Assembly (NCBI GenBank): GCA_964592405.1
Contig: CAZQBY010000003.1
Location: 1 to 64,000 of the forward strand
Direction: 5' to 3'
Source: an uncultured archaeon
GTDB lineage: Archaea; Altiarchaeota; Altiarchaeia; JAFGQM01
Length of the DNA: 64,000 bases
Each line of letters begins with the position of its first letter. Within the stretch, counting starts at the first letter, position 1. Positions 32,208 to 58,828 of the stretch are shown here, piece by piece. The notes beneath the pieces were generated by a model that was not told the DNA's origin, ran no database searches, and saw nothing but the letters and a program-made list of their open reading frames with translations. The translations under genes and the position numbers were made by a program.

Positions 32208-32350
32208 GGGCCCGTAGGTTAGCCAGGATATACTACGGGACTTCGGGAGCCCTTTTCTTCAAAAGAAAAGTGCTTCACCCCAAAAGAACGGGGTGCTGGG
32301 CAAACGGCTGGAGTCATCCCGTGACCCGGGTTCGAATCCCGGCGGGTCCG
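32208..32350 (+). tRNA. tRNA-Arg(TCG) with a 69-nt intron at 37/38 (32247-32315)
   Basis: GGGCCCG/CGGGTCC acceptor stem, CGGGA/TCCCG anticodon stem, GGTTCGAATCC T-arm, bulge-helix-bulge CTTC/GGAG. Confidence 0.93.
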
Positions 32351-32352
32351 TC

Positions 32353-32446
32353 TTACTGATGCTTAGCTGAGGCTCGACGGCCCCGCCTTATGTCGAGGTC
32401 ATGTGCAGAGAGGATGTGTCCACCTCGCCATCCCGGTGGGTCCGTC
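32353..32446 (+). repeat. tRNA-linked repeat unit ending in a copy of the tRNA-Arg 3' end
   Basis: ATCCCGGTGGGTCCGTC (32430-32446) vs ATCCCGGCGGGTCCGTC (32336-32352); core 32382-32439 is 46/58 identical to 58766-58823. Confidence 0.8.
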
Positions 32447-32496
32447 CTCATTCTTCATTGGCTTAACTAGCCTGTGCAATCCTTCCCTATTGATTT

Positions 32497-34047
32497 CTAG
32501 ATCCTGTCCTTGCAGGCATCCCTCTGCCGCTTGTCCTCTATCTCATTACAGGCCTTACGAGCCATGGATGGGTTGTCGGAGGCCAGAATCCCAGCCAACT
32601 GCTGCAAGCAGTCCCATACCTGCTGATCACTGGGCAGATCCAAACAAAGGCCTATGGCCAGTTGAGGACATTCCCTAGCCCTCCGGCCATAATCGTCACC
32701 GATTATACTTCGCACTGCACAGAATAGGTCATCTATATAGTCGCATATCTCGGTGACCTCCTGACAGGTCTCAGCCGACCACAGGAGATCCTGCAGACAG
32801 CTCTCCTTGCTCCACCCTCCTGACACATGCTGGCAGACGGTAATTTTTTGAGATATATTCTCCATCAACTGCATGACTAAGCGGTAGCAATCCTCGGAGG
32901 ACCGCCCAAAGGGAAAACCCTTAATCATTCCGCAGGTCTCTATGGCAAAATTCAGGTCTGACGGGGCTGTGATGCGGGCTATCTTGACATAACAGTCAGT
33001 GGCCATTGTTCCCTCCATAGAACCACAACAGTATTCCCTCGCCCCTGCAGGGTTTTCCATTATAAATTCGTCAGAACACGCGCTCCTGAAGCAGTCCTCC
33101 CTGCGATTCTTGCTTATGTGGTCCCTGCAGATTCTTATCGCTGAAAGAGGATTTTCCAAGTGTGCCATGACGCCATTAAGAAGGCAGTCGTCCCTCCGGT
33201 TGACTCCGGTTATCTTCAAGCATGCCTGTATTGCCTCCTGAAGAGAAGTGGAGACTATGTTCTCTGCCACCATATAAAAACAGTCATTTGAGTTCCCCTC
33301 AGAGAGCAAGCCACAGAGATCTAATACTCGGTCAGGATACTGCATTATGATATCCTTGGATTTCTGGAAGAGGTCCCAGTAACACATTTTGGAATCGGCC
33401 TCGTCATCTATTTTCCCACACAGTTCTAGGGAGAGGGATATATTCTGGTTGGCAGCTTCAATGCTTACCCTGCGATAGCACTCGTTCCTCATCTCAGCCT
33501 CGAAGAGCATATCGCAATACTTAGCCGCCTTTTGCGGATCTTCAGTAATTATCTTCTCCATCATATTCTTATAGCACCTGTCCCTGTCACCCAAGTCTGA
33601 AATTGAGGAACAGTCTGAAGGAGACTTCTTGAGTATCATGTTGGTGGATTCCTCTCCCGGAGCCCTGCTAAGAGCGTTTGCCATCAGAAGGAGCCCTGTT
33701 ATCAAAAGTGCAATGGCGACTGCCAGAGTGGCAATGTTCTTTGGGCTGGCAAACCTTGCAGAAGTGACAGGACCTCCATATTTCCTCCGCAGTTCATCTA
33801 TCTGCTTGCTGGCGAGGGAGAGCTCCTCCTCGTATTCGCGTATGAGCTTGTCGGCCTTGTCCCCCTCTATCCGCCTCCTGTAGAAGTCCAAGCGGGTGGT
33901 CTTTATCAGGTCCTTGAGCTGTTTCGTCCTCAGCTCCAGGCGGGACATCTCGTCGCCGGGTCCGCGGCTGCTGATCAGCCTGTAGAACAGAAAGGCGGCA
34001 ATGCCTATGCATGCCAGGCCTGATATGATGAGCTCCTCAGTTGCCAT
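32497..34047 (-). CDS. Membrane protein with TM-coiled coil-TM N-terminus and Cys-rich helical repeats
   Basis: About ten C..I......D.CY-type repeats; two N-terminal TM helices. Confidence 0.8.
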   Translation of the reverse strand: MATEELIISGLACIGIAAFLFYRLISSRGPGDEMSRLELRTKQLKDLIKTTRLDFYRRRIEGDKADKLIREYEEELSLASKQIDELRRKYGGPVTSARFASPKNIATLAVAIALLITGLLLMANALSRAPGEESTNMILKKSPSDCSSISDLGDRDRCYKNMMEKIITEDPQKAAKYCDMLFEAEMRNECYRRVSIEAANQNISLSLELCGKIDDEADSKMCYWDLFQKSKDIIMQYPDRVLDLCGLLSEGNSNDCFYMVAENIVSTSLQEAIQACLKITGVNRRDDCLLNGVMAHLENPLSAIRICRDHISKNRREDCFRSACSDEFIMENPAGAREYCCGSMEGTMATDCYVKIARITAPSDLNFAIETCGMIKGFPFGRSSEDCYRLVMQLMENISQKITVCQHVSGGWSKESCLQDLLWSAETCQEVTEICDYIDDLFCAVRSIIGDDYGRRARECPQLAIGLCLDLPSDQQVWDCLQQLAGILASDNPSMARKACNEIEDKRQRDACKDRI

Positions 34048-34091
34048 CGTCTAATTAATGGGGATTATTAAAAAAAGGCAGTGGGGCAGGT

Positions 34092-34679
34092 TCAGCCGGT
34101 TATCTCCACTGAAGGTTTGTTAGTATCGGGCGACTGGACAGGGTGGGCATGCGTCTTGTTGTATATCCTGCCAGATTTCTTATCGACCCGGAAGCAAGTC
34201 ACGACATTCCTGCCTATCAATTCGACATAGTAGCAGTTGTCCCTTTCATAGATTTCCATCGTTTCATCCTCCGGAAAATTTTCCCTGCTTATATAATCAA
34301 ATCCGGCTTTCCGCATGGAGCGTAAAACAAAATCCACCGCCTTGTCGTTGTTCATATCCTTCGGGAATGGTAAGCAGGCCGGCAGGGATTTACTTGGTTC
34401 CCCAGGATCAACTGCTGCATACATAGATGTATAGCCGGGTTCAAGGAGGTCGCCCTTGAGCTGGATAGTAAAGTCCTTGTAGATGGCGCTGTTCTTGGGA
34501 ACATAGGTTATCGGGTTGCTGAAGTAGACCCAAACCCCATCGTCCTTGAGAGTGACCTTCACACGATCGAACTCGCGAGAGGGGTCAAAGGGGGAGGGGA
34601 ACAACTGCCCCTTCGCCAGCTCCACGGCCCTCCTTACTATGGCCTTCTTGCCCAGCCTTTTGAGCTTTTTGATGTCCAT
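34092..34679 (-). CDS. Hypothetical protein (PepSY-like beta C-terminus)
   Basis: 195-aa ORF; YYVEL...FRVDKKSGRI. Confidence 0.6.
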   Translation of the reverse strand: MDIKKLKRLGKKAIVRRAVELAKGQLFPSPFDPSREFDRVKVTLKDDGVWVYFSNPITYVPKNSAIYKDFTIQLKGDLLEPGYTSMYAAVDPGEPSKSLPACLPFPKDMNNDKAVDFVLRSMRKAGFDYISRENFPEDETMEIYERDNCYYVELIGRNVVTCFRVDKKSGRIYNKTHAHPVQSPDTNKPSVEITG

Positions 34680-34862
34680 ACGCTACCTCACTTGGCCGGA
34701 ATCTGTGCAGCTGGCCCATATACTATCTGAGTTGGTTAGGATACCAACTCTGCCCCTAACTTGTATAATATCTAGATTATGAAGAGCTGGATAAAAATGG
34801 GACCCCGTCAGACTGAAGTGCCCATGGGGGGAACAAAGGAGAGTCTTAGGAGGGGTTTCAGC

Positions 34863-36029
34863 CTAATCCTTCACCCATGCCAGCAGCAAGATGGCAGCAG
34901 TCAAAGACAATACCGCTCCAAAGCTAAATGCTGCCTCGACACTGAAGAACTGCCAGAGCGAGCCCATGATGAACGATGCTGGGAATGCCGCCAGACCGAC
35001 CGCAGTGTGGTAAATGCCGTAAGCAGTTCCTCTGTGTGCTTCGTCCACAAGGTCGGGTATCAGCGCTCTGGCACTGACTTCATAAATCGCTTGGAATATG
35101 GCATAAGCAGCGAAAAGTAGCCAGAGCATAGAAGTGTTATTCATGAAACCAAATCCTAGGCTGACTATTGCAAAGGTAATGAAACTGGATGATAAGACTA
35201 TCTTCTTGCCCACCATATCCGAAAGGCTTCCGGCCGGCATCGCAGCTGTGGCATATATTATATTATAGAAAAGGTAGAGCAGGGGCACTAGGCCAAGGGT
35301 CATGCCCATATCCTGTGCACGTATGAGGAGGAAGGCATAGCTGAAGTTTCCCAGCATGAACAGAGAGGAAACAAAAACGAACCGCTTGAACCCGCTGCTG
35401 AAGCCTCTGAGGCTCAGAGTCACTGACAGTCTCCTGCTGGCATGGCACCTCTTCTCCTTCACGAACATAAGTATTGTGAGAACTGACAGGATGCCGGGCA
35501 CTGCAGTCAGTAGGAAGATGAGCTGGAATGACATCGAGAGGAAGTAGAAGAGCACAAAGGCTATGGCAACTCCAGCAACCGCCCCAGAGGTATCCATCAT
35601 CCTGTGGAAACCAAAAGACCTCCCCTCATGTGCCTTTTGGGAAGAGGCAGCTATAAGGGCATCTCGGGGGGATGTCCGCACTCCCTTGCCGATACGGTCA
35701 ACGAATTTTATGGCGAGGACAAAGGGCCACGAGCTGGCAAGGGATAAAAGCGGTTTGGTCAGGTTGGATATAGCATAGCCGGCAACCACAAGGGGCTTTC
35801 TGGAACCAAATCTGTCGGAAATCCAGCCGGAGAGCAGTTTGAGCATGCTGGAGGAGCTCTCGGCAACGCCCTCTATGAGGCCAACTATTGCCTCACCAGC
35901 GCCAAGGACATTGGTCAGGAAGAGAGGCAAGAGGGAGAGTATCATCTCACTGCTCATATCATTGAAGAAACTGGCAATACCCATGAAGAGGATGTTCCGG
36001 TTTATGCCCGCCCTGATTGGCTTTGCCAT
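34863..36029 (-). CDS. MFS transporter
   Basis: 12 TM; GWISDRFGSRK, DRIGKGVRTSPRDALIA, GSLSDMVGKK. Confidence 0.95.
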   Translation of the reverse strand: MAKPIRAGINRNILFMGIASFFNDMSSEMILSLLPLFLTNVLGAGEAIVGLIEGVAESSSSMLKLLSGWISDRFGSRKPLVVAGYAISNLTKPLLSLASSWPFVLAIKFVDRIGKGVRTSPRDALIAASSQKAHEGRSFGFHRMMDTSGAVAGVAIAFVLFYFLSMSFQLIFLLTAVPGILSVLTILMFVKEKRCHASRRLSVTLSLRGFSSGFKRFVFVSSLFMLGNFSYAFLLIRAQDMGMTLGLVPLLYLFYNIIYATAAMPAGSLSDMVGKKIVLSSSFITFAIVSLGFGFMNNTSMLWLLFAAYAIFQAIYEVSARALIPDLVDEAHRGTAYGIYHTAVGLAAFPASFIMGSLWQFFSVEAAFSFGAVLSLTAAILLLAWVKD

Positions 36030-36064
36030 GCTAATATTGATATTAGGATAAAAAAGAATTGGAT

Positions 36065-36820
36065 TTACTCCTCAATCCGGTTGAACTGCCTTATAGCAAA
36101 CAGCATGAACAACACAGTCAGACTGGATATTGCCAGAAAGGAGACACCAAAGTCTATTCCTGAAGAGCCCAAGATGAGATATCTGAGGCCGGCCACACCA
36201 TATGTAAGAGGGTCAAAGAGAGAGGCTGTCCTGAGGAAATCCGGCGCGGAGGATAGGGGAAACAGCGCGCCGCTCAGGAAGAACATGGGCATGATGAGGA
36301 AGTTCATTATCAGCTGGAATCCGTGCATGTCAGTCATGGTGGATGCAATGGCTATGCCCAGTGAGACGAACATCATGGATATCATGAACATGAAGACCAA
36401 CAGGAGAAGGATATTGACCAGCTGCACCTGCGCCCCCAAAAGGATAGCTATAATCATTATAATTATGCCCTGTATGACCGCAGTGGTCGCGCCGCCCAGT
36501 CCCTTCCCCAGGACCACCGAAAGCCTGCTTATAGGGGCGACGAGTGTCTCCTTCAGGAAGCCAAACTGCCGGTCCATGATAACTATTATGCCGGAGAACA
36601 TGGAAGCAAACATCAGCACCATGCCGATTATGCCGGGCGCGATGAACTGGAGGTAGCCACCCTCTATGGGAACCGCAATGGTGCTGTTAAGGCCGGTGCC
36701 CAGAATGGCGAGGAAGAAGAATGGCATCCCCAGACTGCCTATCAGCCTGGACTTGGATCTGAAGAACCTGATGAGCTCTCTCTTCCAAAGCGCGTATATG
36801 CCCTCTATCTCCCTGTTCAT
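36065..36820 (-). CDS. ABC-2 type exporter permease (DrrB-like)
   Basis: DRQFGFLKETLVAPISR, PMFFLSGALFP. Confidence 0.93.
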   Translation of the reverse strand: MNREIEGIYALWKRELIRFFRSKSRLIGSLGMPFFFLAILGTGLNSTIAVPIEGGYLQFIAPGIIGMVLMFASMFSGIIVIMDRQFGFLKETLVAPISRLSVVLGKGLGGATTAVIQGIIIMIIAILLGAQVQLVNILLLLVFMFMISMMFVSLGIAIASTMTDMHGFQLIMNFLIMPMFFLSGALFPLSSAPDFLRTASLFDPLTYGVAGLRYLILGSSGIDFGVSFLAISSLTVLFMLFAIRQFNRIEE

Positions 36821-37812
36821 CGTCCCCCCCATGCCTTGCGCCTGAGGCGCATCCCCGCCCTCGGGTCGGCCTCCCCCTCCCGTATGGTGCGGCCTGTGTA
36901 GTGCAGGAATACATCGTCAAGCGAGGGTTTTCTGAGGCTCACCGATTCCACGGTGATGCCCTCCTTCTCCATGAAGCGCATCAGGGCAGGTATCTTCTCC
37001 TCGCCCTTCTCTACGCGGACGTCTATATACCCGTTGTGCTTGACGGCGGACTTGACCCAGCCGAGACCCAAAAGTCGGGATACGCGGGGGTCACCATCAC
37101 TGCACTTCAACGAAATGACATCTCCGCCCAGCTTGTTTTTGAGGCTTTCGGGCGCATCTACTGTGATAATCTTTCCGTGGTCTATTATGGCGAGCTTGTC
37201 GCAGACCTTGTCCGCCTCGTCCATGTAATGCGTTGTCAGTATTATGGTGATGCTCTCGGATTTGTTCAGCTTCTTTATGTACTCCCATATGCTGGCCCGG
37301 GTCTGGGGATCCAGACCTAGGGTGGGCTCGTCGAGGAAAAGCACCTTGGGATGATGGAGGAGGCCGCGGGCTATCTCCAGGCGCCTCTTCATGCCGCCGG
37401 AGAACTTCTTCACCACGACGTTGAGCCGGTCGCCCAGCTCCACGATGCCCATCAGCTCAGCGATGCGCTCGTCCCTGATGTCTTTGGAAATCCCATACAT
37501 GGACGCATGTATCTCCAGATTCTCCCTTGCGGTCAGCTCGTCATCGAGGCTTGGATCCTGAAAGACTATGCCGATGCTTTTTCTCACAGAGTCCGCTTGT
37601 TTTGAGATATCGAAGCCGTTGACAAGGGCAGTCCCGGAGGTTGGCCGACGCATTGTGACAAGCATGGATATCAGGGTTGTCTTGCCGGCGCCATTGGGAC
37701 CAAGGAGACCAAATATTGTACCTGCCTCCACCGACAGGCTGACTGAATCAACAGCGGTGAAATCGCCATATGCCTTCGTTAGGCCTTTGGCTTCAATTGC
37801 ATTTTTAGTCAT
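36817..37812 (-). CDS. ABC exporter ATP-binding protein (DrrA-like)
   Basis: GPNGAGKT, FSGGMKRR, LFLDEPT, TTHYMDEA. Confidence 0.95.
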   Translation of the reverse strand: MTKNAIEAKGLTKAYGDFTAVDSVSLSVEAGTIFGLLGPNGAGKTTLISMLVTMRRPTSGTALVNGFDISKQADSVRKSIGIVFQDPSLDDELTARENLEIHASMYGISKDIRDERIAELMGIVELGDRLNVVVKKFSGGMKRRLEIARGLLHHPKVLFLDEPTLGLDPQTRASIWEYIKKLNKSESITIILTTHYMDEADKVCDKLAIIDHGKIITVDAPESLKNKLGGDVISLKCSDGDPRVSRLLGLGWVKSAVKHNGYIDVRVEKGEEKIPALMRFMEKEGITVESVSLRKPSLDDVFLHYTGRTIREGEADPRAGMRLRRKAWGGR

Positions 37813-37892
37813 TGCGCGCGCCATCCCGGGATATTTGAGGTGGGGGGATTAAAAATGGGGGCTCGGAGGACATTGCAACCGGCGAGGCCCAC

Positions 37893-38615
37893 CTATCTTT
37901 TTCGTTGGCCAAATTTGTCCACGCTACCAAGTATCCTCCTTGTCAGGCGGTCGCCCTTCTCTAGGAACTCCCCGGCCATGCTCCTGAGTATCCTGTTCTC
38001 CCTAACCCAGCCATAGACGAGGAAGAATGCTGAGGCTCCTGTCACGACCATGAATACTATTGTTGGGGTAAGAAAGGGCACGAGTCCAAGAGCCATATAC
38101 CACCAGAAGACTATTGCGACAGCGCCCCCAATGCTTATGGCTATTATGGCGCGCTTAAGGCGTATCCTGAGGAAATATGCCACAATTCCCGCAACATAAA
38201 CCCCATAGGCAAAACTTACAAGACCCAAAGCCATGTAAAAACCCAGATCGCCGAAGCTGCGTCTGAAGCTGAGGGTTAGCTCGCCCGCTCTGCCCACTAT
38301 CTCTCTCCGGCTTTTGTGGATATAGGTTGCAACCTTATCAAGAATCTTGTTCTCAAACCGCTTCTCGGTAGGAAGGAGATGTAGTATGGAGTAAAGGAAC
38401 AGAACCGAAAGCAACTCAAAGAGCAGGAGCAGAGAGAGGTGCGCCAGGGGCCTGAAAAGAGGATTGCCCAGACCGTAAGATATTGCCATTCCCGGGCCGA
38501 AGACCACGGATATGAATAGGAACTGGGTCAGGAAAGTGGTTCTTAAGAGGCGAAGGAGGAGCAGAGCAGCTGTTATGAGAAGTATCAATGGAACAAGGAA
38601 TCGCCTAGATTTCAT
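37893..38615 (-). CDS. Membrane protein, small multidrug export (COG2426)-like
   Basis: Multiple TM; GVYVAGIVAYFL..AIIAISIG pattern. Confidence 0.55.
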   Translation of the reverse strand: MKSRRFLVPLILLITAALLLLRLLRTTFLTQFLFISVVFGPGMAISYGLGNPLFRPLAHLSLLLLFELLSVLFLYSILHLLPTEKRFENKILDKVATYIHKSRREIVGRAGELTLSFRRSFGDLGFYMALGLVSFAYGVYVAGIVAYFLRIRLKRAIIAISIGGAVAIVFWWYMALGLVPFLTPTIVFMVVTGASAFFLVYGWVRENRILRSMAGEFLEKGDRLTRRILGSVDKFGQRKR

Positions 38616-38715
38616 GAATTATGTTCGGTCTTTGGGGATAAAAAAGGCTTTATGGTCCAACCGGGGGGGCATTCCGGAGAGTAGACTTTTTATAGGATTA
38701 TCTACAAACATAAGG

Positions 38716-38765
38716 AACTCCGCGTGGAATGTGGGGGGTAACCCTGAACCGAAGAGGAGGTTGAA
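38716..38765 (+). promoter_or_regulatory. Putative structured rpl15e leader
   Basis: CTCC/GGAG pairing overlaps the SD; GGG-GTAA-CCC GNRA hairpin; eL15 leaders are described in archaea. Confidence 0.4.
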
Positions 38766-39365
38766 ATGAACGAAAAAAAATTTCTTACTGTAATAGAGCC
38801 GAAGAGGAGGGCAGCTGTGCTAGCCCTCAAAGAGAAGGACCCGGACGAATACAAGCAGACCATAAAGGAGCTGCGGCAGGTTTGGGTCGGAAGGGGCCGC
38901 ATCTGGAGGAAGGGCGAAGCAGTGGTGAAGGAGAAAAAACCACTCAAGGCATGGCGGGCTAGGGAATTAGGCTGGAAGGACAAACCCGGTCTCATCGCAG
39001 TTGTGGTTCGTGTTGGGAAGGGTAACCGCAAGAGAAGACAGACCTCTGGCGGAAGAAAACCCGCAAAGGCTTATGATTACGCGACCCTTGACAAGTCGAA
39101 GCAGACGCAGGCTGAGGAGCGCGCAAACCGCAAGTTTCCCAACTGCGAGGTGCTTGGTTCCTACTGGCTCTGGGAGGATGGCCAATATAAGTATTTTGAG
39201 GTTATACTAGCTGATCCAAACAATCCCCATGTAAAGAATGACAAAGAGCTGAACTGGATATGCTCGGGCAAACAAAAGGGGAGAGTATATCGCGGTCTTA
39301 CGCCCTCTGGAAAGAAGAGCAGGGGGCTTAGGGGAAAAGGCAAAGGCGCTGAGAAGGTGAGATAA
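38766..39365 (+). CDS. rpl15e: 50S ribosomal protein L15e
   Basis: ARELGW, VRVGKG, AEERANRKFPNCEVLGSYW..EDGQYKYFEVILADP, RVYRGLT. Confidence 0.95.
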   Translation: MNEKKFLTVIEPKRRAAVLALKEKDPDEYKQTIKELRQVWVGRGRIWRKGEAVVKEKKPLKAWRARELGWKDKPGLIAVVVRVGKGNRKRRQTSGGRKPAKAYDYATLDKSKQTQAEERANRKFPNCEVLGSYWLWEDGQYKYFEVILADPNNPHVKNDKELNWICSGKQKGRVYRGLTPSGKKSRGLRGKGKGAEKVR

Positions 39366-39366
39366 A

Positions 39367-40506
39367 ATGTTATTTGCAAAAAGGATAGTGGATGTGCCGC
39401 CATCTGCAACGTTCAAGTATGCTGCAATGGCCAAGAGGGAAGGTATTATAAACCTGACTATAGGCAGACCGGGCTTTGATACCCCGAGGATTATTGTCGA
39501 AGCGGCCAAGAAGGCGCTTGATGAGGGCAAGCACCACTATGGTCCCAGCAAGGGCATTCCGGAGCTGAGGGAGAAGATTGCAGAGAAGCTCGTCAGGGAG
39601 AATGGCCTTAAAGACATTGATAGTGAAAAGATTATTGTCAGCATGGGGGCCAAGAATATCCTCTATGAGATATTCACGGTTATGATAAATGATGGTGAAA
39701 AGGTCGCTATACCAAATCCCTCGTGGGTCAGCTATGAGAGCATGGTAACGCTGGCAGGAGGCAAGACTGTATGGATACCGCTAAAGCCGGAAAATGGTTT
39801 CATCCCGGACGAGGACTTTCTCACGGAGCTGGACAACTCTGGAGCCAAGATGGTTGTCATAAACAGCCCCAACAACCCTACTGGTGCAGTCTATCCAAAA
39901 GAGACTCTCAGGGAGATAATCAAGATAGCAAAGGCTAATGATATGTGGATTATCTCGGATGAGTGCTATGAGACAATAATCTATGATGAAAAGCACTTCA
40001 GCATAGGTTCTGAGTATGACAAAACCATAACTGTCAATGCCTTCTCAAAGCCGTTTTCCATGACCGGATGGCGGCTAGGTTATGCAGCATGCCCGGAATT
40101 TGAGGTTATTGAGAAGATGAATATCCTGCAACAGCAGTCCGTCTCAAATCCAGTCACATTTGCCCAATACGGCGCGCTGGCCTGTTTCACAGACGAGGCA
40201 CGGGAGGCCGCGAGCAGGATGAGAGATGAGTTCAGAAAGAGGCGCGATTATTCGATGAAGAGGATAAAGGACTTCAACTGCACATGTCTGAAACCGGGCG
40301 GAGCATTCTATATCTTCCCATATTTTGAAGGACAGGATGATGTAGAACTAGCAGATAGTCTCCTAGAAGCTGGTGTAGGGACTGTTCCCGGTTCGCCGTT
40401 TGGCACACAGGGGAGAGGCTGTATCCGCATCAGTTACGGCAATGCTGATGTAAGAATCCTGAAAGAGGCCTTTGACCGAATGGCGACCGTAAAGGGGCTG
40501 GTATGA
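39367..40506 (+). CDS. PLP-dependent class I/II aminotransferase (aspartate aminotransferase-like)
   Basis: NSPNNPTG, ISDECY, FSKPFSMTGWRLGY. Confidence 0.95.
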   Translation: MLFAKRIVDVPPSATFKYAAMAKREGIINLTIGRPGFDTPRIIVEAAKKALDEGKHHYGPSKGIPELREKIAEKLVRENGLKDIDSEKIIVSMGAKNILYEIFTVMINDGEKVAIPNPSWVSYESMVTLAGGKTVWIPLKPENGFIPDEDFLTELDNSGAKMVVINSPNNPTGAVYPKETLREIIKIAKANDMWIISDECYETIIYDEKHFSIGSEYDKTITVNAFSKPFSMTGWRLGYAACPEFEVIEKMNILQQQSVSNPVTFAQYGALACFTDEAREAASRMRDEFRKRRDYSMKRIKDFNCTCLKPGGAFYIFPYFEGQDDVELADSLLEAGVGTVPGSPFGTQGRGCIRISYGNADVRILKEAFDRMATVKGLV

Positions 40507-40546
40507 GGCCTTCCCACCTTTTTATTCTTGAACCAGTTAAAGAGAT

Positions 40547-40777
40547 ATGGAGAAGCGGGGTACAGGATATGCCCATGAGATGCTCGTAGCGTTCTTCTTC
40601 CTAATATTGGTTGTAACATTCTACGCCAGCGACTACCAGCTAGCCATGCCTGCCATACTGCTCATGGCGGGTGGAGTTATGATACTTGGGGGGAGTGTTA
40701 TAAAAGAGCCACTTATCATAACGGCTGGTGTTGTGTGTCTGGCCATAGCGCTTATGTATTCAGAAGTATTTAAATAA
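40547..40777 (+). CDS. Small membrane protein
   Basis: Three hydrophobic helices. Confidence 0.6.
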   Translation: MEKRGTGYAHEMLVAFFFLILVVTFYASDYQLAMPAILLMAGGVMILGGSVIKEPLIITAGVVCLAIALMYSEVFK

Positions 40778-40807
40778 TTTAAATAGTTTCCGCCCTTAAG
40801 ATTGGTG

Positions 40808-41647
40808 ATGGATCCGCTCACAATAGCCCTTGTAACCGTATCCATGTTTGTTCTATTCCTGATGCTAACCTCCGGCCACAGAAGACACCGTCTTGAGGAG
40901 GCTCTCAAAAAACTGGAAAAGGAGCGGATGCGCCTGATGAAATCCATAGAGCATGTAAAGCTCTCCTTTTACCACAAGAAACTGGATGAGAAGGAGGCAC
41001 AGGACAGGATATTTGAGTACGAGGAAAAGTTACGTAACGTGCAGGACAGGATACTTGAGATAAAGGAAAAGCCGCTAATGCGCACGATAAAGAAACATGA
41101 GGAGGAAGACAAAAAGGCAGTCAAGGAAGAAGCTGGGGAGATAAGAGAATCGGAAAGGCTGATGATGGCAAACTTTGCAGCGAGATCCGTTGTCATTCTG
41201 TTCGTGATGGCGGCAGTGGCGATAATGGTTGTTTCTGTCATCTTTGGTATACGGTGGGGTGAAACACCATCCGGCTCCAACCCTTTCTTACAGATACCGG
41301 TGAGTGCGCGTATATCACCCGAGGGGAGTACATACCCCGGCAGCTCTGCAGGTCTGAGGGTTGAGATGAGTAACACACTGGACAAAAATCTTGAGGATGT
41401 GAGGGTAACTGTAAGAGCGCCCAAAGGCAGTGGCATAGACTTCGGAGAAGGGGAAATCGGGGTGAAGATAATCCCGGAGCTGGAGAGAGGGGGAGTTAGA
41501 GAAGTCTACTTCCCAATAAGGATAAACCAGGATGCAGAGGAGGGGGAGTATATCATAGGGGTAGAAGCAGAGAATGATTATGATAATCTCAAGGCATCGA
41601 CCACGGCGAGGCTTGTAGTCAGAGTGGGGGCAGAAGAGAATGCTTGA
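40808..41647 (+). CDS. Membrane protein: TM-coiled coil-TM plus CARDB/NEW3-like Ig domain
   Basis: Two TM flanking a coiled coil; C-terminal DAEEGEYIIGVEA Ig-like strand. Confidence 0.75.
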   Translation: MDPLTIALVTVSMFVLFLMLTSGHRRHRLEEALKKLEKERMRLMKSIEHVKLSFYHKKLDEKEAQDRIFEYEEKLRNVQDRILEIKEKPLMRTIKKHEEEDKKAVKEEAGEIRESERLMMANFAARSVVILFVMAAVAIMVVSVIFGIRWGETPSGSNPFLQIPVSARISPEGSTYPGSSAGLRVEMSNTLDKNLEDVRVTVRAPKGSGIDFGEGEIGVKIIPELERGGVREVYFPIRINQDAEEGEYIIGVEAENDYDNLKASTTARLVVRVGAEENA

Positions 41648-42077
41648 TACAATAAGACGGATAAAATGGAGGAACATCGCAGGTCTGACAGCTCTTATAC
41701 TGGTAGTGTTCTTCCTAGTTTATCTTGTATCCTTCATAACCACGCTGTTGTATGGCGACTGTGTGGAAAAGGAGAACATCAAGGTATGTTTTTCTGTCGG
41801 GAAACAGAGTCTGGAGAGATATGGTGCAACGGTCATAACAGCAGAGATAACCAATACGGGCAGGACTGTTTCAGGAGCAGTTGTCAATATGCGGCTCTCA
41901 CCAAATCTGGACAACCTGTCTAGCACCACTCAGGAGGTCGAGACCATGGCCCCGGGCGATACTGTCAAGCGCGAGTTCAGGATAGCCGCCAAGGGTGAAA
42001 GAGGGAGATTCAGGGTGGAATTTGACACAAATTCAGACAACAAGCCGGACAAAGAGATGTTCATCACAGTTGACTAG
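41640..42077 (+). CDS. Membrane-anchored CARDB-like protein
   Basis: N-terminal TM; AEITNTG, MAPGDTVKREF. Confidence 0.7.
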   Translation: MLDTIRRIKWRNIAGLTALILVVFFLVYLVSFITTLLYGDCVEKENIKVCFSVGKQSLERYGATVITAEITNTGRTVSGAVVNMRLSPNLDNLSSTTQEVETMAPGDTVKREFRIAAKGERGRFRVEFDTNSDNKPDKEMFITVD

Positions 42078-42116
42078 GCTTGCTGATCGGTTTTATAGGT
42101 TCTCCTTCTAATTACA

Positions 42117-48647: not shown

Positions 48648-48816
48648 GTCCAGATATGGGTTTAATCCCGGCACAGTTCGGATAGGAACAGGATATCAAG
48701 GCTCCTTGCATCCGTCATGTTTTCCAGATATCTCAAATTGGTTTGGGATTCAAAAGTAAAATTGTGAGCGGATGCGTGCGAGATTTTTATAGTTCGACGC
48801 ATTACTTAAGAAGAAA

Positions 48817-49320
48817 ATGCTCAGAAGAAGAACTATGACAAAGGCCTTTCTAGTAGGTGTCCATGAGATGGAGAGGAAGATGGGGCCGGAGGCCACCGAC
48901 GAATGGATGCGCAAGATTGGTGAGAAGCTGGCGGAATTTGAAGGCCCGGGCATAATGGGTGAGGAAGTGGACGGTTTATACTGCTTCCGGATATGTCTGT
49001 TTGCACCAAAGCTGGATGAATTTTTGGAAGAAATGGGATATTGCCCTGAGGGCCATGAGGAGATACTAGAATATGTTAAGGTCAGAGATCAGGGGCCAAG
49101 AGGACCTGCCGCTGTCAACGTCTGTTGCTCCATGTGCCATGCTTATAGGAAAAGAAGGGGAAGGCTCTCGGGCAAGTCGGATCTGTTGCATCTGGGCGCA
49201 AGATACAAACTGACCGGAGAAGAGAATATCAACAAAGAGGCAATCAAGAAATCAGGTCATAAGATCAAGGACATTGAAGCTCTCCTCAAGAAGTTTGACT
49301 GCATTAATGCCTATGTATGA
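48817..49320 (+). CDS. Hypothetical Cys-containing protein, V4R/methanogen-output-domain-like
   Basis: IGEKLA helix, CLF and VCCSMCH motifs; overlaps the GH15 start. Confidence 0.5.
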   Translation: MLRRRTMTKAFLVGVHEMERKMGPEATDEWMRKIGEKLAEFEGPGIMGEEVDGLYCFRICLFAPKLDEFLEEMGYCPEGHEEILEYVKVRDQGPRGPAAVNVCCSMCHAYRKRRGRLSGKSDLLHLGARYKLTGEENINKEAIKKSGHKIKDIEALLKKFDCINAYV

Positions 49321-50522
49321 TGAACCTGAAGGAAGCCCAAAAACTCTATGATAAAAGCATAGAGATACTAAGGGAGAATCAGCATGAAAACGGCGGTTTC
49401 TATGCCTCGCCACCCGGGACCCGCTATCCCTATGTCTATGCACGCGACCATTCCATAGATGTCATGGGCGCAACCAGCGCTGGGCTTTTCAATGTTGCCA
49501 AAAAGGGGCTAGAATTTATGCTCAGGTATCAGAAGCCTAGCGGCGAGTTTGCACAGAGGTATGATGTAGAGGGCAATGACCGCTCATACAAGGAGCTGCA
49601 GATAGACGGCAATGGACTGGTGCTCTTTGCACTGGGAGATTATTGCAGGAAAAGCGGAGACTACTCCCTGGTGGATGAATACTGGGAGCACATAATGAAG
49701 GGTGCTGAATTCATATTGCAGAATATGAATGATGAGATTGGACTAGTCCACACGATAAACAGCATCCATGAGTATCCCGCCTATGAACAGGGGTTTGAGA
49801 TATATGCAAACTCGGCCTGTTGCGGTGGTCTGGCGGAGGTCGCCCGCCTGGCTAAAAGGAAGGGAGAGAAAGTGGGTGAAATAACCAAGGCAGTAAAGAG
49901 GATAAAAGCTGGTATCGGAAAGGCCCTTTGGAGCCCAAGGAGGAGATCCTTCATAAAAAACATACGGATAAAAAACAAGCACAGCAACCCTTTGGGCTAT
50001 GATCCCTATTCATCCGTGGTGACAGATGTTGACGCAGTTTTATATGCGCCTGCTTATTTTGGGATATTCCCAGACAGCGACAGAAAGATCAAGCTAACTG
50101 TTGAGAGGATACATAAGGAGCTATGGGATCTGGAGCTGGGTGGATTAAATCGTTATCCTGAGAGCTGGGGACGCAACAACGGGGGTTATGGACCGTGGTG
50201 CCATTTTACAGCCATGTTGTCACGCCACTATTCCAAGACTGGTATGAAGTGGATGGCTGACATATATCTTGGATGGGTAGTGGACAAGGCCTATAACTAT
50301 CTTCTCCCGGAACATATATCCACCTGTGAGCGCTTCCGGCTGTGGGAGGAGGAGTATACCAACGCCCACATCATGCGAGACGACAAGATTGTGATGCGCA
50401 GACGCATCAAAAAGCACCCGATGTGGAAGGAAGGCTTGGCATATGTAGTGGTTCCGCTCATCTGGCCGCATGCCGAATATATCATGGCCTATAACGACTA
50501 CAAGAAAGCCTTTTTGGGCTGA
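49317..50522 (+). CDS. Glycoside hydrolase family 15 ((alpha/alpha)6 catalytic domain only)
   Basis: ASP..RYPYVYARD, QIDGNG, GGLNRY, LLPEH, PLIWPHAEY. Confidence 0.85.
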   Translation: MMNLKEAQKLYDKSIEILRENQHENGGFYASPPGTRYPYVYARDHSIDVMGATSAGLFNVAKKGLEFMLRYQKPSGEFAQRYDVEGNDRSYKELQIDGNGLVLFALGDYCRKSGDYSLVDEYWEHIMKGAEFILQNMNDEIGLVHTINSIHEYPAYEQGFEIYANSACCGGLAEVARLAKRKGEKVGEITKAVKRIKAGIGKALWSPRRRSFIKNIRIKNKHSNPLGYDPYSSVVTDVDAVLYAPAYFGIFPDSDRKIKLTVERIHKELWDLELGGLNRYPESWGRNNGGYGPWCHFTAMLSRHYSKTGMKWMADIYLGWVVDKAYNYLLPEHISTCERFRLWEEEYTNAHIMRDDKIVMRRRIKKHPMWKEGLAYVVVPLIWPHAEYIMAYNDYKKAFLG

Positions 50523-50690
50523 AGTTCCGGCCACCTGAGCCCAGTCGGAAGAAGGAGGATTTCCTGGCCAGTGGCCTGACATAAAGGTCCGGGAAATGAG
50601 GGTGCAGGCTTTTCAAGATTAGTCTTTTATTTTGGAATATTCTAACTAAGCGCCATTGTCCGAATTGGAGAAGGCATTTGGAATCGTTGT

Positions 50691-50857
50691 GCGGCCGTGG
50701 TGTAGTCTGGTATCACTCAAGCCTTCCACGACCTTTTCTCGGAGAAAAGGTCGATCAAAAGAGGCCTTCGCCTCGTGAAGGCGCTTTCGGTCGACCGTGG
50801 ACTAGAGACTGGGAGCGGAGTGAGCTTGGAACCCGGGTTCGAATCCCGGCGGCCGCA
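50691..50857 (+). tRNA. tRNA-Gly(TCC) with a 94-nt intron at 37/38 (50729-50822)
   Basis: GCGGCCG/CGGCCGC acceptor stem, CAAGC/GCTTG anticodon stem, T-arm, CTTC/GGAG BHB helix. Confidence 0.93.
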
Positions 50858-51050
50858 CCTTACTTTTTCTTGAGTTAACCTTGGTGCGGTCTTCGCTTCA
50901 CTGCTCAAGAAAGCCATTGGGCGAAGCATGCTTCTCGCATTCGCTCGAAGCGGCGGCCACACTTACACATCATTATGGTGGCTCGTGCTGGCTGCTATGG
51001 CAGGAGCATCTGCCTAGAGGTGTATCCACCCTGCCATCCAAACGACCGTG
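50858..51050 (+). repeat. Degenerate tRNA-linked repeat region (possibly two tandem units)
   Basis: TCGAAGCGGCGGCCACAC (50945-50962) resembles the tRNA 3' end; AGAGGTGTATCCACCCTGCCATCC (51016-51039) resembles the shared core. Confidence 0.5.
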
Positions 51051-51082
51051 CTTCTTTTTCTTGATTCCCTCGTTATAGCTCC

Positions 51083-52444
51083 ATGAAGATAAGTTTTCTA
51101 GGAGCCTGCAGAATGGTTACCGGCTCCTGTTATCTCATTGAGACAAATGGGGAGAAGGTGCTGGTTGACTGTGGTATGTTTCAGGGTTCCAAAGAGGTTA
51201 CCCGGCTTAATTATGAGGGTTTTGGATTCAACCCGGAAGAGATATCATATGTTTTTCTGACTCATGCACATATTGACCATTCCGGCCTGCTGCCAAAGCT
51301 CTATGCAGAAGGATTTTATGGCAGAATCGTTTCGACCGGGGCAACTGCCGATTTGTGCAAGATTATGCTGGAAGATGCAGCTGATATGCACGAGCACGGA
51401 ACAGAGCATGAGAACCGCAGAAGAGAGGAAGAGGGTTTGCCACCAAGAAAGCCGCTCTACACTAAGAGAGATGCTAGGGGCGTCTGCAGGCAGTTTGACA
51501 GGGTCAACTACGATGAGACATATGAAGGTGGCTGTATTAGTGTGAGGTATTTTGATGCAGGCCACATACTGGGCTCGGCAATAATTGAGATGTCTGCAGA
51601 GGGCAAAAAGATTGTCTTTTCCGGCGATATTGGTCAGTGGGGCAGCCCAATAGTGAGAGATCCCACCCTGATAAGGGAGGCAGACTATTTGCTGATGGAG
51701 TCTACGTATGGAAATCGTCTCCATCAGGATGTTTCTGAGAGGGCAAACCTGCTGGCAGAATATGCCCGAGAAACTTACAAAAGGGGGGGCAAACTGCTTA
51801 TACCCTCATTCGCTGTAGAGAGGACACAGGAGCTACTTTACACAATAAAAAAACTAAAGGATGCCGGAGAGTTCCCACAGGAAGAAGTCTTTCTGGACAG
51901 CCCGCTGGCCATGAGAGCAACCAATGTTTTCGTCAAGCACAGGGAGTGCTATGACTGGGAGAGTCTGAGTTCTGACGATCCTATGGGATTGGATGAAATT
52001 CAGTACACAGGAAGTGTGGAGGCTTCCAAGAAGCTCAACCACTACAGCAAGCCGTGTATCATAATTGCTGGGAGCGGAATGTGTACGGGTGGTAGGATAA
52101 AACACCATCTCAAAAACAGTCTTTATGACTCAAGAAATATGGTGCTGTTTGTAGGCTATCAGGCAGAAGGCACTCTGGGCCGAGTAATCCTCGAAGGAGC
52201 CAAGAGAGTCAGGCTCTTGGGTGTTGAGGTGGATGTCAATGCCGAGATTCGCAGTATAGATGGGTTCTCGGCTCATGCCGATAGGAACGGCCTGCTCACA
52301 TGGGTCAAGGGATTCAAAAGAGCACCAAAAATCACTTTTATAGTCCATGGCGAACCAGATGCTGCAGAGGCATTGAAAGAGGGGCTTGAGAGGGGAGGTT
52401 TCTATTGCAGGATACCCTCAATGCTACAGACCATAAGGCTCTGA
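51083..52444 (+). CDS. MBL-fold beta-CASP ribonuclease (bacterial-type)
   Basis: VTGSC, THAHIDHSG, DAGHILGS, MESTYG, FAVERTQE, FSAHAD, VHGE. Confidence 0.93.
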   Translation: MKISFLGACRMVTGSCYLIETNGEKVLVDCGMFQGSKEVTRLNYEGFGFNPEEISYVFLTHAHIDHSGLLPKLYAEGFYGRIVSTGATADLCKIMLEDAADMHEHGTEHENRRREEEGLPPRKPLYTKRDARGVCRQFDRVNYDETYEGGCISVRYFDAGHILGSAIIEMSAEGKKIVFSGDIGQWGSPIVRDPTLIREADYLLMESTYGNRLHQDVSERANLLAEYARETYKRGGKLLIPSFAVERTQELLYTIKKLKDAGEFPQEEVFLDSPLAMRATNVFVKHRECYDWESLSSDDPMGLDEIQYTGSVEASKKLNHYSKPCIIIAGSGMCTGGRIKHHLKNSLYDSRNMVLFVGYQAEGTLGRVILEGAKRVRLLGVEVDVNAEIRSIDGFSAHADRNGLLTWVKGFKRAPKITFIVHGEPDAAEALKEGLERGGFYCRIPSMLQTIRL

Positions 52445-56883: not shown

Positions 56884-56945
56884 TGCTTGAATTTGAATCT
56901 CATATACAAAAAACAATTTTTAAACCGACTCTTATTAATTCCCCG

Positions 56946-58628
56946 ATGCATCAAAAGTTCATTGTATTGATATTTGTAGTTGTCTTTCTGACAAACTTGG
57001 CAACAGCAGACTCTCCTTGGAGGGTAACAGAAATGAGGGCCAGAATAACATTTAGCGGAGAGGCTACCATCCAGAGAGAGGGCACCAATCCCAAGATCAA
57101 CTGGGTTGAGGGCAGGTTTTATCTTGCCCCCCTTCACCTAAACGTCCAATCACCCAAGCTGGTGGGATATATGCCGGACGAGTACAGATTTGAGGAGGAT
57201 GAGAACGGGAACAGATATGTGGTTTTCAGATGGGAAAACCCGACTGTGGACTCGCTCCCATATGCCATCGTTTGGGAGGTAGTGGTTAATGGATTCAATT
57301 ATACAATAAACTCACTGGGTGACTTGGGCAGATATGCCGACAACCTAAAAAAGTATCTGGAACCCGATGAACTGACCCTTTGGACAGGATATATGAAATC
57401 CAAGGCAGATTCCATAATTCAGGGCTCAAGAAGCGTTGTGGAGGCCGCAAAGAGGTTATGTAATTGGGTGTCATCAGCACTGTCATATGATGATGCCTAC
57501 TGGAAGATAACCGCTTCTGCACAGGAGGCATTCTCCCAGAGGAAAGGCACCTGCGATGAGTATGCCAATCTTTTCATAGCAATGTCCCGGAGTGTTGGCA
57601 TACCAACCAGATATGTTGAGGGCCTTGTTTACAGTGGTGAAAGCTGGAACTATCATGCCTGGGCTGAGGTCTATGCCAGCGGGGCATGGATTCCGGTTGA
57701 TCCAACCTACAATGAGATAGGCTTTCTTGACTCAACACACATAGCACTGGCAAAGGTGGTAAGTGATGAGGATGTTTACAACCGGATAAAATGGGCTGGT
57801 ATTGGGGTAAGGGCAAGCTTTGGAAAGGATGACAAACAAATAGAGATGACGACCGAATCCAGAGATATTCTAGAGATAAACCTGTCCGTACCGGAGAGCA
57901 TTGTGGGGTCTGAGATCTTTGATGTTGTGGCGGAAATAACCAACACGCTGAACTCGTATGCTGTGGCGACGTGTGCGATAAATATGCCAGTTGAGATGAT
58001 ACTGCTGGATTATAAGGAGAAATCCGTAATCCTTGAGCCGAGGGGTAAAGGGCGCCTCTCATGGAGGATTGCCTCACCCGGTAATTTGGACAGGAGATGG
58101 CTCCATAAGATGCCTGTCCAGATATACTGCTTCCCCAGTGGCTTTGTCAATAAGAGCATCATAATAGATCCGAGATACAGTAAGGAGATTGTGCGACAAG
58201 TCACAATATCTGATTTGGTAATTCTAAACGGAAGTACAAGCATGGTTAGGGTCAGGAATGACGGAACTGGGGAGATAAGCAAACTAAATGTCGAACTTTG
58301 CCTTGAGAACAACAATTATACGTGCAAAACCAATGTTGTCAGGGGACTTGAACCCGGCGGAACCGCTGAGGTTTTCTTTGAGATTGAGGTGGGGGACGGT
58401 GACACTGTATCGGTCACTGTTGAATCGGATGAACTCGGGGCTGTGCACAGTAAGACTACTGTCTCCGGGCTGGAGAAGGCAACAAAGAAACAGGAGGAAA
58501 CAAAGCCGCCTGTGGTACTAAAATCCATGGAGGCTCGGAAGGAGGAATGGGTTATTATTGTATTGGTAGTTATCATACTTGCCGCCATAATGTCTGCAGT
58601 TGCAGCCAGCATTATCAGGAGGGATTAA
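56946..58628 (+). CDS. Secreted transglutaminase-like domain protein with Ig domains and C-terminal TM
   Basis: GTCDEYA, HAWAEVY and DPT catalytic triad; signal peptide; C-terminal TM. Confidence 0.88.
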   Translation: MHQKFIVLIFVVVFLTNLATADSPWRVTEMRARITFSGEATIQREGTNPKINWVEGRFYLAPLHLNVQSPKLVGYMPDEYRFEEDENGNRYVVFRWENPTVDSLPYAIVWEVVVNGFNYTINSLGDLGRYADNLKKYLEPDELTLWTGYMKSKADSIIQGSRSVVEAAKRLCNWVSSALSYDDAYWKITASAQEAFSQRKGTCDEYANLFIAMSRSVGIPTRYVEGLVYSGESWNYHAWAEVYASGAWIPVDPTYNEIGFLDSTHIALAKVVSDEDVYNRIKWAGIGVRASFGKDDKQIEMTTESRDILEINLSVPESIVGSEIFDVVAEITNTLNSYAVATCAINMPVEMILLDYKEKSVILEPRGKGRLSWRIASPGNLDRRWLHKMPVQIYCFPSGFVNKSIIIDPRYSKEIVRQVTISDLVILNGSTSMVRVRNDGTGEISKLNVELCLENNNYTCKTNVVRGLEPGGTAEVFFEIEVGDGDTVSVTVESDELGAVHSKTTVSGLEKATKKQEETKPPVVLKSMEARKEEWVIIVLVVIILAAIMSAVAASIIRRD

Positions 58629-58662
58629 CTTTTTAAGATAAAATTTCTAACTAACCACTTCT

Positions 58663-58735
58663 GCGACCGTAGTCTAGCCTGGTATGACATCGGCTTGCCA
58701 AGCCGGTAGCCCGGGTTCAAATCCCGGCGGTCGCA
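58663..58735 (+). tRNA. tRNA-Gly(GCC), no intron
   Basis: GCGACCG/CGGTCGC acceptor stem; TCGGC-TTGCCAA-GCCGG anticodon arm; GGTTCAAATCC T-arm. Confidence 0.96.
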
Positions 58736-58828
58736 CCTCGTTCTTCTTTCTGTAGGTTCAGTGCACCCGCCTTATGTCAAGGTCATTCGCAGAGAATTGG
58801 TGTCCGCCTCAACATCCTGGCGGCCGGA
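58736..58828 (+). repeat. tRNA-linked repeat unit ending in a degenerate copy of the tRNA-Gly 3' end
   Basis: ATCCTGGCGGCCGGA (58814-58828) vs ATCCCGGCGGTCGCA (58721-58735), 12/15; core homologous to 32382-32439. Confidence 0.75.

Follow-up and report, generated by a model that had tools for sequence, protein, structure and literature searches.

Hairpin units that copy the 3′ end of their own host tRNA form a lineage-specific, tRNA-linked family in an uncultured archaeon

The DNA analysed here, called the window throughout, is a stretch of 64,000 nucleotides (nt) from an uncultured archaeon of the class Altiarchaeia, and corresponds to positions 1-64000 of contig C3 in a 22-contig, 1.13-Mb assembly (G000; GC content about 0.49; 87% complete). 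Three of its transfer RNA (tRNA) genes, tRNA-Arg(TCG), tRNA-Gly(TCC) and tRNA-Gly(GCC), are followed by small repeat units built on the 3′ end of the host tRNA itself, and the neighbours of these units are housekeeping genes. The end of tRNA-Arg (32336-32352) recurs at 32430-32446 with 16/17 identical positions and an offset of 94, the repeated segment being the last 15 nt of the gene (32336-32350). Similarly, the end of tRNA-Gly(GCC) (58721-58735) recurs at 58814-58828 with 12/15 identical positions and an offset of 93. The trailers of these two tRNAs share an ungapped core of 58 nt, of which 46 positions are identical (32382-32439 versus 58766-58823). All three figures, given earlier in a reading of the sequence alone (the original prediction), were reproduced exactly. 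Behind tRNA-Gly(TCC), where degenerate units, perhaps two, had been suspected, two blocks were delimited.

The stretch is contained in six sequencing runs, all of DNA, of which five are labelled as hydrothermal-vent metagenome and one as marine. The best protein relatives come from archaeal assemblies, some labelled 'Nanoarchaeota' or 'Micrarchaeota', and clusters of RpoB look-alikes point to Methanobacteriota and Microcaldota. A metagenome contig of 854 nt (run X2) covers 32150-33003 with 2 differences and spans both tRNA-Arg and its unit; this independent contig indicates that the Arg unit is not an assembly artefact of the metagenome-assembled genome. The tRNA-Arg(TCG) gene is not called by ARAGORN, nor by Rfam at the gathering score, and ARAGORN and Rfam detect one and two, respectively, of the three unit-linked tRNAs, an oversight explained by the long introns, which also mark the organism as an archaeon. 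At loci of this kind, standard tRNA finders overlook much of the content.

When 20,000 random 15-mers of the window were taken as a chance control, 68 were found to recur 40-125 nt downstream with at most 3 mismatches. A T-arm search of G000 returned 32 sites, two of which resemble chance matches. With a copy defined as a downstream recurrence of the last 15 nt of the tRNA with no more than 3 mismatches, 11 of the 32 sites carry their own copy at a distance of 68-94 nt (five exact), and six further sites hold degenerate or truncated units; about half of the T-arm (tRNA-like) sites of the genome carry units. The same examination of control tRNAs in five genomes from four other families of the class gave no copy at any of 29 T-arm sites. 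The observation is far beyond chance. The units stand in tandem directly behind the tRNA in 1 to at least 4 copies, are 68-99 nt long without an open reading frame (ORF), and typically show 0-1 mismatch to the tRNA end. Near-identical tandem copies interrupt the assembly as N gaps on contigs C14, C17 and C18.

The distribution of the units was followed by genome scans with a covariance model of the unit (R1). All seven other genomes of the same family (four genera; numbered G001, G002 and so on with the other related genomes compared) have R1 matches, 4-21 per genome, and none of 53 genomes from eight sister families of the same class (57-97% complete) has any. Among the 77 R1 matches in fetched loci, 62 hold a 15-mer that agrees with the 64 nt just upstream with at most 3 mismatches (29 exactly), 11 stand behind a T-loop, and 4 are of uncertain context. 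Thus, the expectation that copies of the core lie just 3′ of tRNAs and end in the cognate 3′ end holds in G000, by nhmmer and by R1, and in the seven relatives. No family of copies unlinked to tRNAs turned up, and the core lies outside the conserved protein-coding genes identified around it. On metagenome contigs the strict pattern gave no match; a second pattern marked 33 loci, of which 8 are true units, all behind tRNA 3′ ends. The units are hereby shown to be strictly tRNA-linked: small hairpin cassettes that are attached to tRNA genes and form a family confined to this lineage. Full-text literature searches, with most subscription journals outside their coverage, brought up no account of archaeal hairpin arrays matched to tRNA ends. 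The coordinates of the features are collected in Table 1.

Table 1. Features of the window (plain coordinates) and of related loci (genome, contig or locus given).
Feature	Coordinates	Strand	Remarks
tRNA-Arg(TCG) gene	32208..32350	+	~70-nt intron after the anticodon loop; anticodon by eye
Arg unit, spacer S	32351..32377	+	pyrimidine-rich, then GCTTAGC..CTCGA motif; from unit alignments
Arg unit, outer stem 5′ strand	32378..32387	+	inverted copy of tRNA nt 64-73; folds and pairing statistics
Arg unit, junction TT and type-1 cargo	32388..32429	+	inner stem ATGTCGAGGT/ACCTCGCC, internal loop CAT/TGTCC, apical stem-loop
Direct copy of tRNA-Arg nt 59-73	32430..32444	+	14/15; 16/17 with 2 further bases
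Spacer-like remnant behind Arg unit	32445..32475	+	TCCTCATTCTTCATTGGCTTAAC...; putative start of a further, truncated unit, by eye
tRNA-Gly(TCC) gene with intron	50691..50857	+	Rfam RF00005, 48 bits; anticodon by eye
Degenerate unit, third cargo type	50858..50961	+	ends in a 10/15 copy of the tRNA-Gly(TCC) 3′ end
Degenerate type-1 unit	50962..51050 (3′ end approximate)	+	core 50996-51040, nhmmer E=2.1; 3′-end copy lost
tRNA-Gly(GCC) gene, intronless	58663..58735	+	ARAGORN; Rfam 67.5 bits
Type-1 unit of tRNA-Gly(GCC)	58736..58828	+	spacer, 5′ strand CCCGCC, cargo, decayed copy; R1 80.3 bits
Six degenerate or truncated sites of G000	C1:19588-; C16; C17; window Gly(TCC); two cut by contig ends		C1 and C16 scored by R1; C17 an N-gapped array
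Upstream mini-hairpin arrays, Leu-type tRNAs	G000:C5:41680-41933; C6:83445-83765; C14:19618-19756		
Second short repeat motif	L096 (G002:C6), L097, L107, L113; metagenome L299, L301, L307		
xerA-like genes	G001:C18:396; G008:C5:478; G010:C22:506; G013:C79:140; G011:C2:1188		

Alignment of 11 well-aligning units revealed a constant order of spacer, inverted strand, TT, inner hairpin, CAT, 2-3 unpaired bases and direct copy. The spacer of about 27 nt consists of a pyrimidine-rich stretch and a TTAGC..TAGCCTCG motif; the GCTTAGC..CTCGA motif of the Arg unit is common to units of different tRNAs and genomes. The 5′ strand of the unit is complementary to host tRNA nt 64-74, and its 3′ part is a direct copy of nt 59/60-73. 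Each unit is therefore a long hairpin, a feature that goes beyond the original prediction, as do the tandem arrangement, the modular inner part and the upstream arrays at Leu-type tRNAs. The inner stem follows the consensus ATGYCRAGG / CCTYGNCAT around a tip, with conserved junctions TT-ATG on the 5′ side and CAT on the 3′ side. By a motif rule, 40 of the 77 units belong to type 1, in which the tip is a short covarying stem offset by the conserved internal loop CAT/TGTCC, two internal loops being conserved. The others carry a GGAG..GCTAAGC..CTCC tip (type 2) or other hairpins, making at least three kinds of cargo, and in four two-cargo arrays examined the order is tRNA, type 2, type 1. The third kind of cargo, seen behind tRNA-Gly(TCC), has no second copy elsewhere in G000 and also stands behind the Arg unit in G001/G002. 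Neither tRNA-Gly(TCC) block gives an R1 match at E<=1. The remnant behind the Arg unit resembles the spacer behind the other tRNA-Arg of G000 (C1:67140-).

Three Leu-type tRNAs of G000 have, in addition, two to five mini-hairpins upstream, in mirror image to the downstream units. Each mini-hairpin begins with the first 8-9 nt of the tRNA (exactly at position +1) and ends in the 3′ acceptor strand, and successive ones are separated by purine-rich spacers of about 23 nt; a TATA-like CAAAATAA box, read by eye, precedes the first. Downstream of unit arrays there is also a second short motif, GGTCTTCAGTCTTG with its complement AAGACNGAAGAC, repeated in tandem; in metagenome relatives it is found within sequences inserted in the tRNA T-loop region as well.

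The covariation analysis that had been proposed as a check gave an RNAalifold consensus of 14 pairs, 9 of them with compensatory changes (11 units). In the 77 R1 matches, whose alignment was fitted to R1 and so favours structure, pairing amounts to 88.4% of cells as compared to 69.5% in shuffles, and double changes to 194 cells as compared to 57; sliding the stem partner lowers pairing to 28-47%. The consensus fold has one 2x3 internal loop, followed by a 4-bp helix that continues into the inner stem. The Arg hairpin and that on contig C10 fold better than shuffles (z about -3), and for the Arg unit the fold of the sense strand (-33.5, z -3.0) is better than that of the antisense strand (-28.1, z -1.9). 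The Gly(GCC) hairpin folds no better than shuffles (z 0.08), which suggests a decaying copy. Inspection of folds and alignments by eye for K-turn, hammerhead, hairpin-ribozyme, bulge-helix-bulge (BHB), C/D and H/ACA motifs gave only isolated look-alikes, e.g. CUGAUGAG in one unit and CAGAGAA in some, and these motifs were discarded. Pairing of the spacer motif GCTTAGC with the type-2 loop GCTAAGC was also discarded, as the same spacer motif accompanies both cargo types and there is no covariation.

Maintenance of the hairpin with covariation, together with the covarying apical stem and two conserved internal loops of type 1, is consistent with a co-transcribed functional RNA. According to this explanation, tRNA and units would form one precursor, in which the base of the hairpin imitates the acceptor stem of its own tRNA and the conserved loops bind a common factor. 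The RNA could serve in folding or processing of the precursor (four segments pairing 1:2/3:4 versus 2:3, attenuator-like), as a substrate or decoy for tRNA-end enzymes, or in the release of the spacer as a small RNA. Such a role is doubtful, yet it is the main rival explanation. Units are retained at orthologous tRNAs across genera despite divergence of the flanks, the repeat ends near the mature tRNA end (nt 73/74), the upstream Leu mini-units start at +1 behind the TATA-like box and so would be transcribed (by eye), the spacers of G000 are without long T runs (by eye), and the Arg unit folds better in the sense strand. Precedents exist in rtT of E. coli and in a dicistron of tRNA and C/D small RNA (sRNA) in Nanoarchaeum (PMC3491384).

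Other properties of the units argue against such an RNA. Rfam scanning of 13 unit-bearing loci at E<=5 left the units unmatched by any family, with only tRNA and tRNA-like chance matches. Mispairs in the stems of the 77 units comprise 24 G.U and 40 A.C, and those in type-1 inner stems 7 G.U and 9 A.C, i.e. there is no wobble preference; in 154 pairs of the tRNA acceptor stems of G000, 3 G.U, 0 A.C and no other mismatch were recorded, unlike the many non-wobble mismatches of the units. These counts give no hint that a sense-strand RNA helix is under selection, but the test is weak, G.U being rare here anyway. The discriminator is paired as often as nt 70-72, which makes the hairpin a poor acceptor mimic, and the T stem retains only 2 bp. 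Among close relatives a given tRNA may have lost its units or may carry degenerate or exchanged ones, the hairpin of Gly(GCC) folds like its shuffles, and runs of T5-T6 in the spacers of several relatives (by eye) could end transcription before the hairpin.

The edges of the copied segment were located in 51 arrays by setting the tRNA against the final unit behind it. Identity rises from 6% at nt 58 to 69% at nt 59 and 90-100% at nt 60-72, a plateau that is partly by construction as the units were preselected at <=3/15 mismatches; it then falls to 86% at nt 73, 65% at nt 74 and about 45% thereafter. The left edge of the copy lies at 59/60 in all tRNAs. Watson-Crick pairing of the outer stem is 67-84% opposite nt 64-69, 45-55% opposite nt 70-74 and about 20% beyond. 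Since pairing reaches nt 74, the stem takes in the discriminator and the base after it, without regard to the mature tRNA end. Bases 61-63, although unpaired, follow the T-stem sequence of each tRNA, as is expected of templated copying. An origin from mature tRNA resembling a primer-binding site was rejected, no CCA complement being present before the inverted copy. On contig C6 of G000 (7025-7420), a tandem repeat of about 210 nt stands behind a tRNA and includes an inverted T-arm copy; its direct T-arm copy is interrupted at 59/60 by a double hairpin of 56 nt, and the last 14 nt of the tRNA come next. Position 59/60 is thus a recurrent breakpoint.

The explanation favoured here, with a probability of roughly 40%, is that the units are non-autonomous DNA cassettes that multiply through duplicative insertion at position 59/60 of the T-loop and that fold like attC and attP(+) sites. 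Each such event would be specific to the tRNA end and would amount to an insertion at 59/60 that duplicates 15-16 nt; local tandem amplification and short-tract gene conversion from the neighbouring tRNA would also shape the cassettes. A single strand would fold, and its outer stem would rebuild a duplex copy of the target, by analogy with attC and attP(+). The tRNA would not need the cassettes, which would probably be carried along passively in its transcript, and a hypothetical enzyme would move them. Copying of the unpaired bases, a sharp common breakpoint, a stem extending beyond the mature tRNA, absence of a wobble preference and turnover of units all argue for DNA. The same holds for the strict tRNA linkage and family-limited spread (7/7 versus 0/53 genomes), for the C6 repeat split at 59/60 and for the real integrative elements at the same tRNA ends.

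Turnover is evident from near-identical tandem copies, degenerate copies, differences in presence between genomes and a swap of cargo at the Arg locus. This locus is syntenic between G000 and G002; its spacer, both stem strands and the junctions are kept, and the cargo is type 1 in G000, and type 2 followed by the third kind in G001/G002. Presence of a unit at the same tRNA varies between relatives, units absent in G000 being present elsewhere and the reverse. The empty-site alleles anticipated in the original prediction are therefore borne out in this weak form only. For a filled/empty-site alignment, the intergenic flanks of G000 and G002 are too diverged, and the comparison of G001 with G002 is confounded by similar Gly tRNAs. 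The nearest neighbour of a type-1 cargo stands at another tRNA in another genome in 26 of 40 cases, the sequences being too short for a tree. Contigs of runs X1-X4 over 31800-51700 show no insertion or deletion at units; joints at tRNA exons in these contigs have sides of 20-25 nt, come from tRNAs of other organisms and were set aside.

Identical tandem copies and degenerate members would also be found if the units were a neutral by-product, that is, tandem partial tRNA pseudogenes produced by template switching or unequal crossing-over at a structured, highly transcribed gene end and homogenised by gene conversion. Template switching yields inverted-plus-direct copies of a gene end, the arrays flank Leu tRNAs on both sides, and plastid trnF pseudogene arrays (PMC3786074) offer a precedent, with tandem partial copies of the adjacent tRNA. 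The units do consist of such copies (nt 59-73 direct; inverted nt 64-74 resembling the 5′ acceptor strand); a core common to different tRNAs is not expected of a trnF-type array. Accidents would not repeat TTATG/CAT, the spacer motif and two or three cargo families at >15 tRNAs in four genera, compensatory changes maintain the stems, and neutral DNA would not stay about 76% alike between genera with unalignable flanks. A neutral origin is considered very unlikely.

The constant left edge at 59/60 and the split C6 copy bear on a further explanation, in which the units are spare 3′-exon cassettes or nascent introns. The sequence from nt 59/60 to the downstream copy would be a potential T-loop intron, removal of which gives the same tRNA; decay of the proximal copy would leave a true 59/60 intron, and the arrays would be stages in the gain of non-canonical introns. 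In metagenome relatives the T-loop region seems to hold inserts that, like the units, mimic the 5′ acceptor strand with their 3′ part (by eye), one cargo kind resembles intron-style hairpin modules (by eye), and the tRNAs of the family are very intron-rich. The route by which archaeal tRNA introns arrive is stated to be open (bioRxiv 10.64898/2026.10.13.758758). The units share with non-canonical archaeal introns the insertion point 59/60 within the C6 T-arm copy; unlike introns, they lie outside the tRNA. An archaeal BHB has two 3-nt bulges on opposite strands with a 4-bp helix between. The consensus unit has instead one 2x3 internal loop, with a 3-nt bulge opposite TT and no second bulge after the 4-bp helix. 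In decayed units the distal copy no longer fits the tRNA 5′ strand (Gly-GCC), which indicates that the proximal copy works, and type-1 and type-2 cargos were not found inside the tRNA introns of G000. This explanation is considered unlikely.

The tRNA introns of this genome were themselves found to be long and built of hairpin modules, e.g. GAGCCCTTTTC..GAAAAGGTGC and TTCACCCC..GGGGTG, common to different tRNAs. Such introns occur in the window at 32208-32350 and 50691-50857 and in G000 at C13:~900-1077, C4:~59170-59331 and C10:~41618-41760(-), and several of these genes escape ARAGORN and Rfam at the gathering score. A site at G000:C1:~69560-69774 (L005), with acceptor GGGGTCG and likely a tRNA-Trp, has an intron of >200 nt with GTGATGA ... 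CTGA, likely a C/D-box sRNA, and a weak Rfam match to sR23 (16 bits).

The original prediction had regarded the units as a tiny non-autonomous element or a standard scar that inserts at the T-arm/acceptor end of several tRNAs, or alternatively as a co-transcribed trailer sRNA. The tRNA-linked units are real and far more widespread than it described; a scar left by an integrase was not supported. In a relative, a true island of about 11 kb (G003:C38:18281-29302) occupies a tRNA 3′ end and carries a tyrosine integrase and an Eco57I-like type IIG restriction-modification gene, besides two KaiC-like genes and one MarR-like regulator. Its attachment-site (att) repeat starts near nt 52-54 and runs about 10 nt (in one case about 55 nt) past the tRNA, so that it is longer than the unit repeat and has other edges; the ends of the island show no likeness to the unit (by eye). 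Next after the island come a second insert and a fragment of a tRNA end, then one unit and a further copy of the native flank. The second insert (L166/L167, in the region G003:C38:18281-30180) is 0.7 kb long, with a 218-amino-acid ORF of no known family and direct repeats of about 66 nt. As the island displaces a unit, real integrative elements do use these tRNA ends. The units resemble attL/attR of tyrosine integrases in having direct tRNA-3′ repeats around inserted DNA and several inserts accreted at one tRNA. They differ in the repeat, which is 15-16 nt from 59/60 and fades at nt 74, as compared to att from nt 52-54 to >=10 nt past the tRNA, and in flanking 68-99 nt of ORF-less DNA.

The DNA cassette is opposed mainly by the missing enzyme and by loops and stems having been conserved over a long time, and the following results weigh against it. 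Tyrosine recombinase (PF00589) has no match in 4 of the 8 family genomes (G000, G002, G005 and G007; 80-87% complete), and the longer, integrase-bearing copies that had been anticipated were not found. Cas1, serine recombinase and reverse transcriptase went undetected in all five genomes searched, and a Y1 transposase (Y1_Tnp) occurs in only 3/5; the copy inspected, in G007, looks like an ordinary IS200/IS605 beside a 488-amino-acid ORF, with no units within about 2 kb. The units have no terminal inverted repeats, their ends not being inverted repeats of each other (by eye). Viral contigs gave 78 pattern matches, about the chance number by a rough estimate, and none passes R1. Contigs from four metagenome runs revealed no variation in the copy number of the Arg unit. 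A double-stranded circle of 90 bp is implausible, and a single-stranded or replicative route must be assumed. Finally, between genera in which the intergenic DNA beside the units can no longer be aligned, units of the same tRNA keep a likeness of about 76%; taken with the covariation of the apical stem and the conservation of two internal loops, this has the appearance of purifying selection, and a functional RNA would account for it no less well.

Scanning around candidate enzymes gave a similar picture. R1 has no match around Y1 genes (4 loci), nor within the fetched flanks of about 1.5 kb around 10 integrase-gene loci, and the only R1 matches on the integrase-bearing contig G003:C38 lie >8 kb from the integrase gene. 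No autonomous element was found within 1.5 kb of the metagenome pattern loci. The best Xer-like tyrosine-recombinase genes of the class lie mostly within about 1.2 kb of a contig end, which suggests a hard-to-assemble neighbour; such a neighbourhood may explain the apparent absence of Xer from several assemblies.

Among the known systems compared, the tyrT/tyrV (rtT) repeat of E. coli is the nearest tested analogue. In E. coli K-12 there are 3 copies with a 178-bp spacing, the last of which overlaps the final 19 nt of tyrV, and in both cases a tandem repeat lies immediately 3′ of a tRNA, each member with the 3′-terminal segment of that tRNA. The archaeal units copy 15 nt with a period of 68-99 nt, as compared to 19 nt and 178 bp, and occur at about half of the T-arm sites, as compared to one locus and one tRNA. 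Unlike rtT, they also have an inverted copy (hairpin), a core common to different tRNAs and a modular cargo. Rfam, which presumably includes an RtT model, gave no RtT homology in the scan of the 13 unit loci (E<=5). The tyrT repeat forms part of the tRNA transcript, from which it is freed as rtT RNA (bioRxiv 10.1101/2024.07.17.603846). A small structured RNA likewise comes from the tRNA's own transcript in the tRNA-Val/C/D sRNA8 pair of Nanoarchaeum (PMC3491384). The units themselves match no snoRNA of Rfam, have no C/D or H/ACA boxes (by eye), and their internal loop is too small for a pocket.

In architecture the units resemble attC and the attP(+) of CTX phage, which are imperfect hairpins of similar size with a site and its inverse forming the outer stem, central bases left unpaired, a conserved inner stem and a variable tip, in arrays that grow in tandem at an anchor site. 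The attC of integrons differs in its GTTRRRY-type core, which the units lack, and the base of the unit hairpin is tRNA-specific; the similarity is one of architecture, in a hairpin that either DNA or RNA may form. In place of cassette ORFs the units have spacers of about 27 nt, their neighbours are housekeeping genes, and no IntI-like gene was found. A wider form of the DNA cassette may nevertheless be put forward, though as a rather doubtful one: tRNA-anchored, integron-like arrays of folded-strand recombination cassettes, with the host tRNA end as the base and an unrecognised enzyme acting at 59/60, which would also be raw material of non-canonical T-loop introns and split tRNA ends.

REPINs are non-coding hairpins of roughly 90 nt, present in many copies, vertically kept and conserved within a lineage. 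The units are similar to REP/REPIN elements in hairpin size, copy number and lineage conservation; REPINs, unlike units, are not tRNA-linked and have no host-site-specific stem. A single-copy Y1 gene flanked by repeats, as in REPIN/RAYT systems, was not seen, Y1 being present in 3/5 genomes with no R1 match nearby. Casposons make a 14-15-bp target duplication at tRNA ends. The units differ from them in the absence of Cas1 (0/5 genomes) and of terminal inverted repeats (by eye). Explanations outside all those considered here are held to be highly improbable.

Two further features adjoin or share the window with the units. NiFe-hydrogenase subunit genes (29670-31695, - strand) adjoin tRNA-Arg, and a 5S rRNA gene lies at 63250-63365 (Rfam, 80.3 bits).

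Mobile DNA classically lands at the ends of tRNA genes, where odd introns and split genes are found as well in archaea. In a whole archaeal family, about half of the tRNA genes are now seen to carry a uniform, structured, tandemly multiplying module that copies the end of its own tRNA. How the units spread and act is inferred, the DNA cassette being favoured over the co-transcribed RNA as its main rival. If they are a DNA element, they would be a tRNA-specific mobile unit of unusually small size, from which T-loop introns might originate; if they are RNA, they would be a new class of tRNA-linked structured RNA, with a base tailored to each tRNA.

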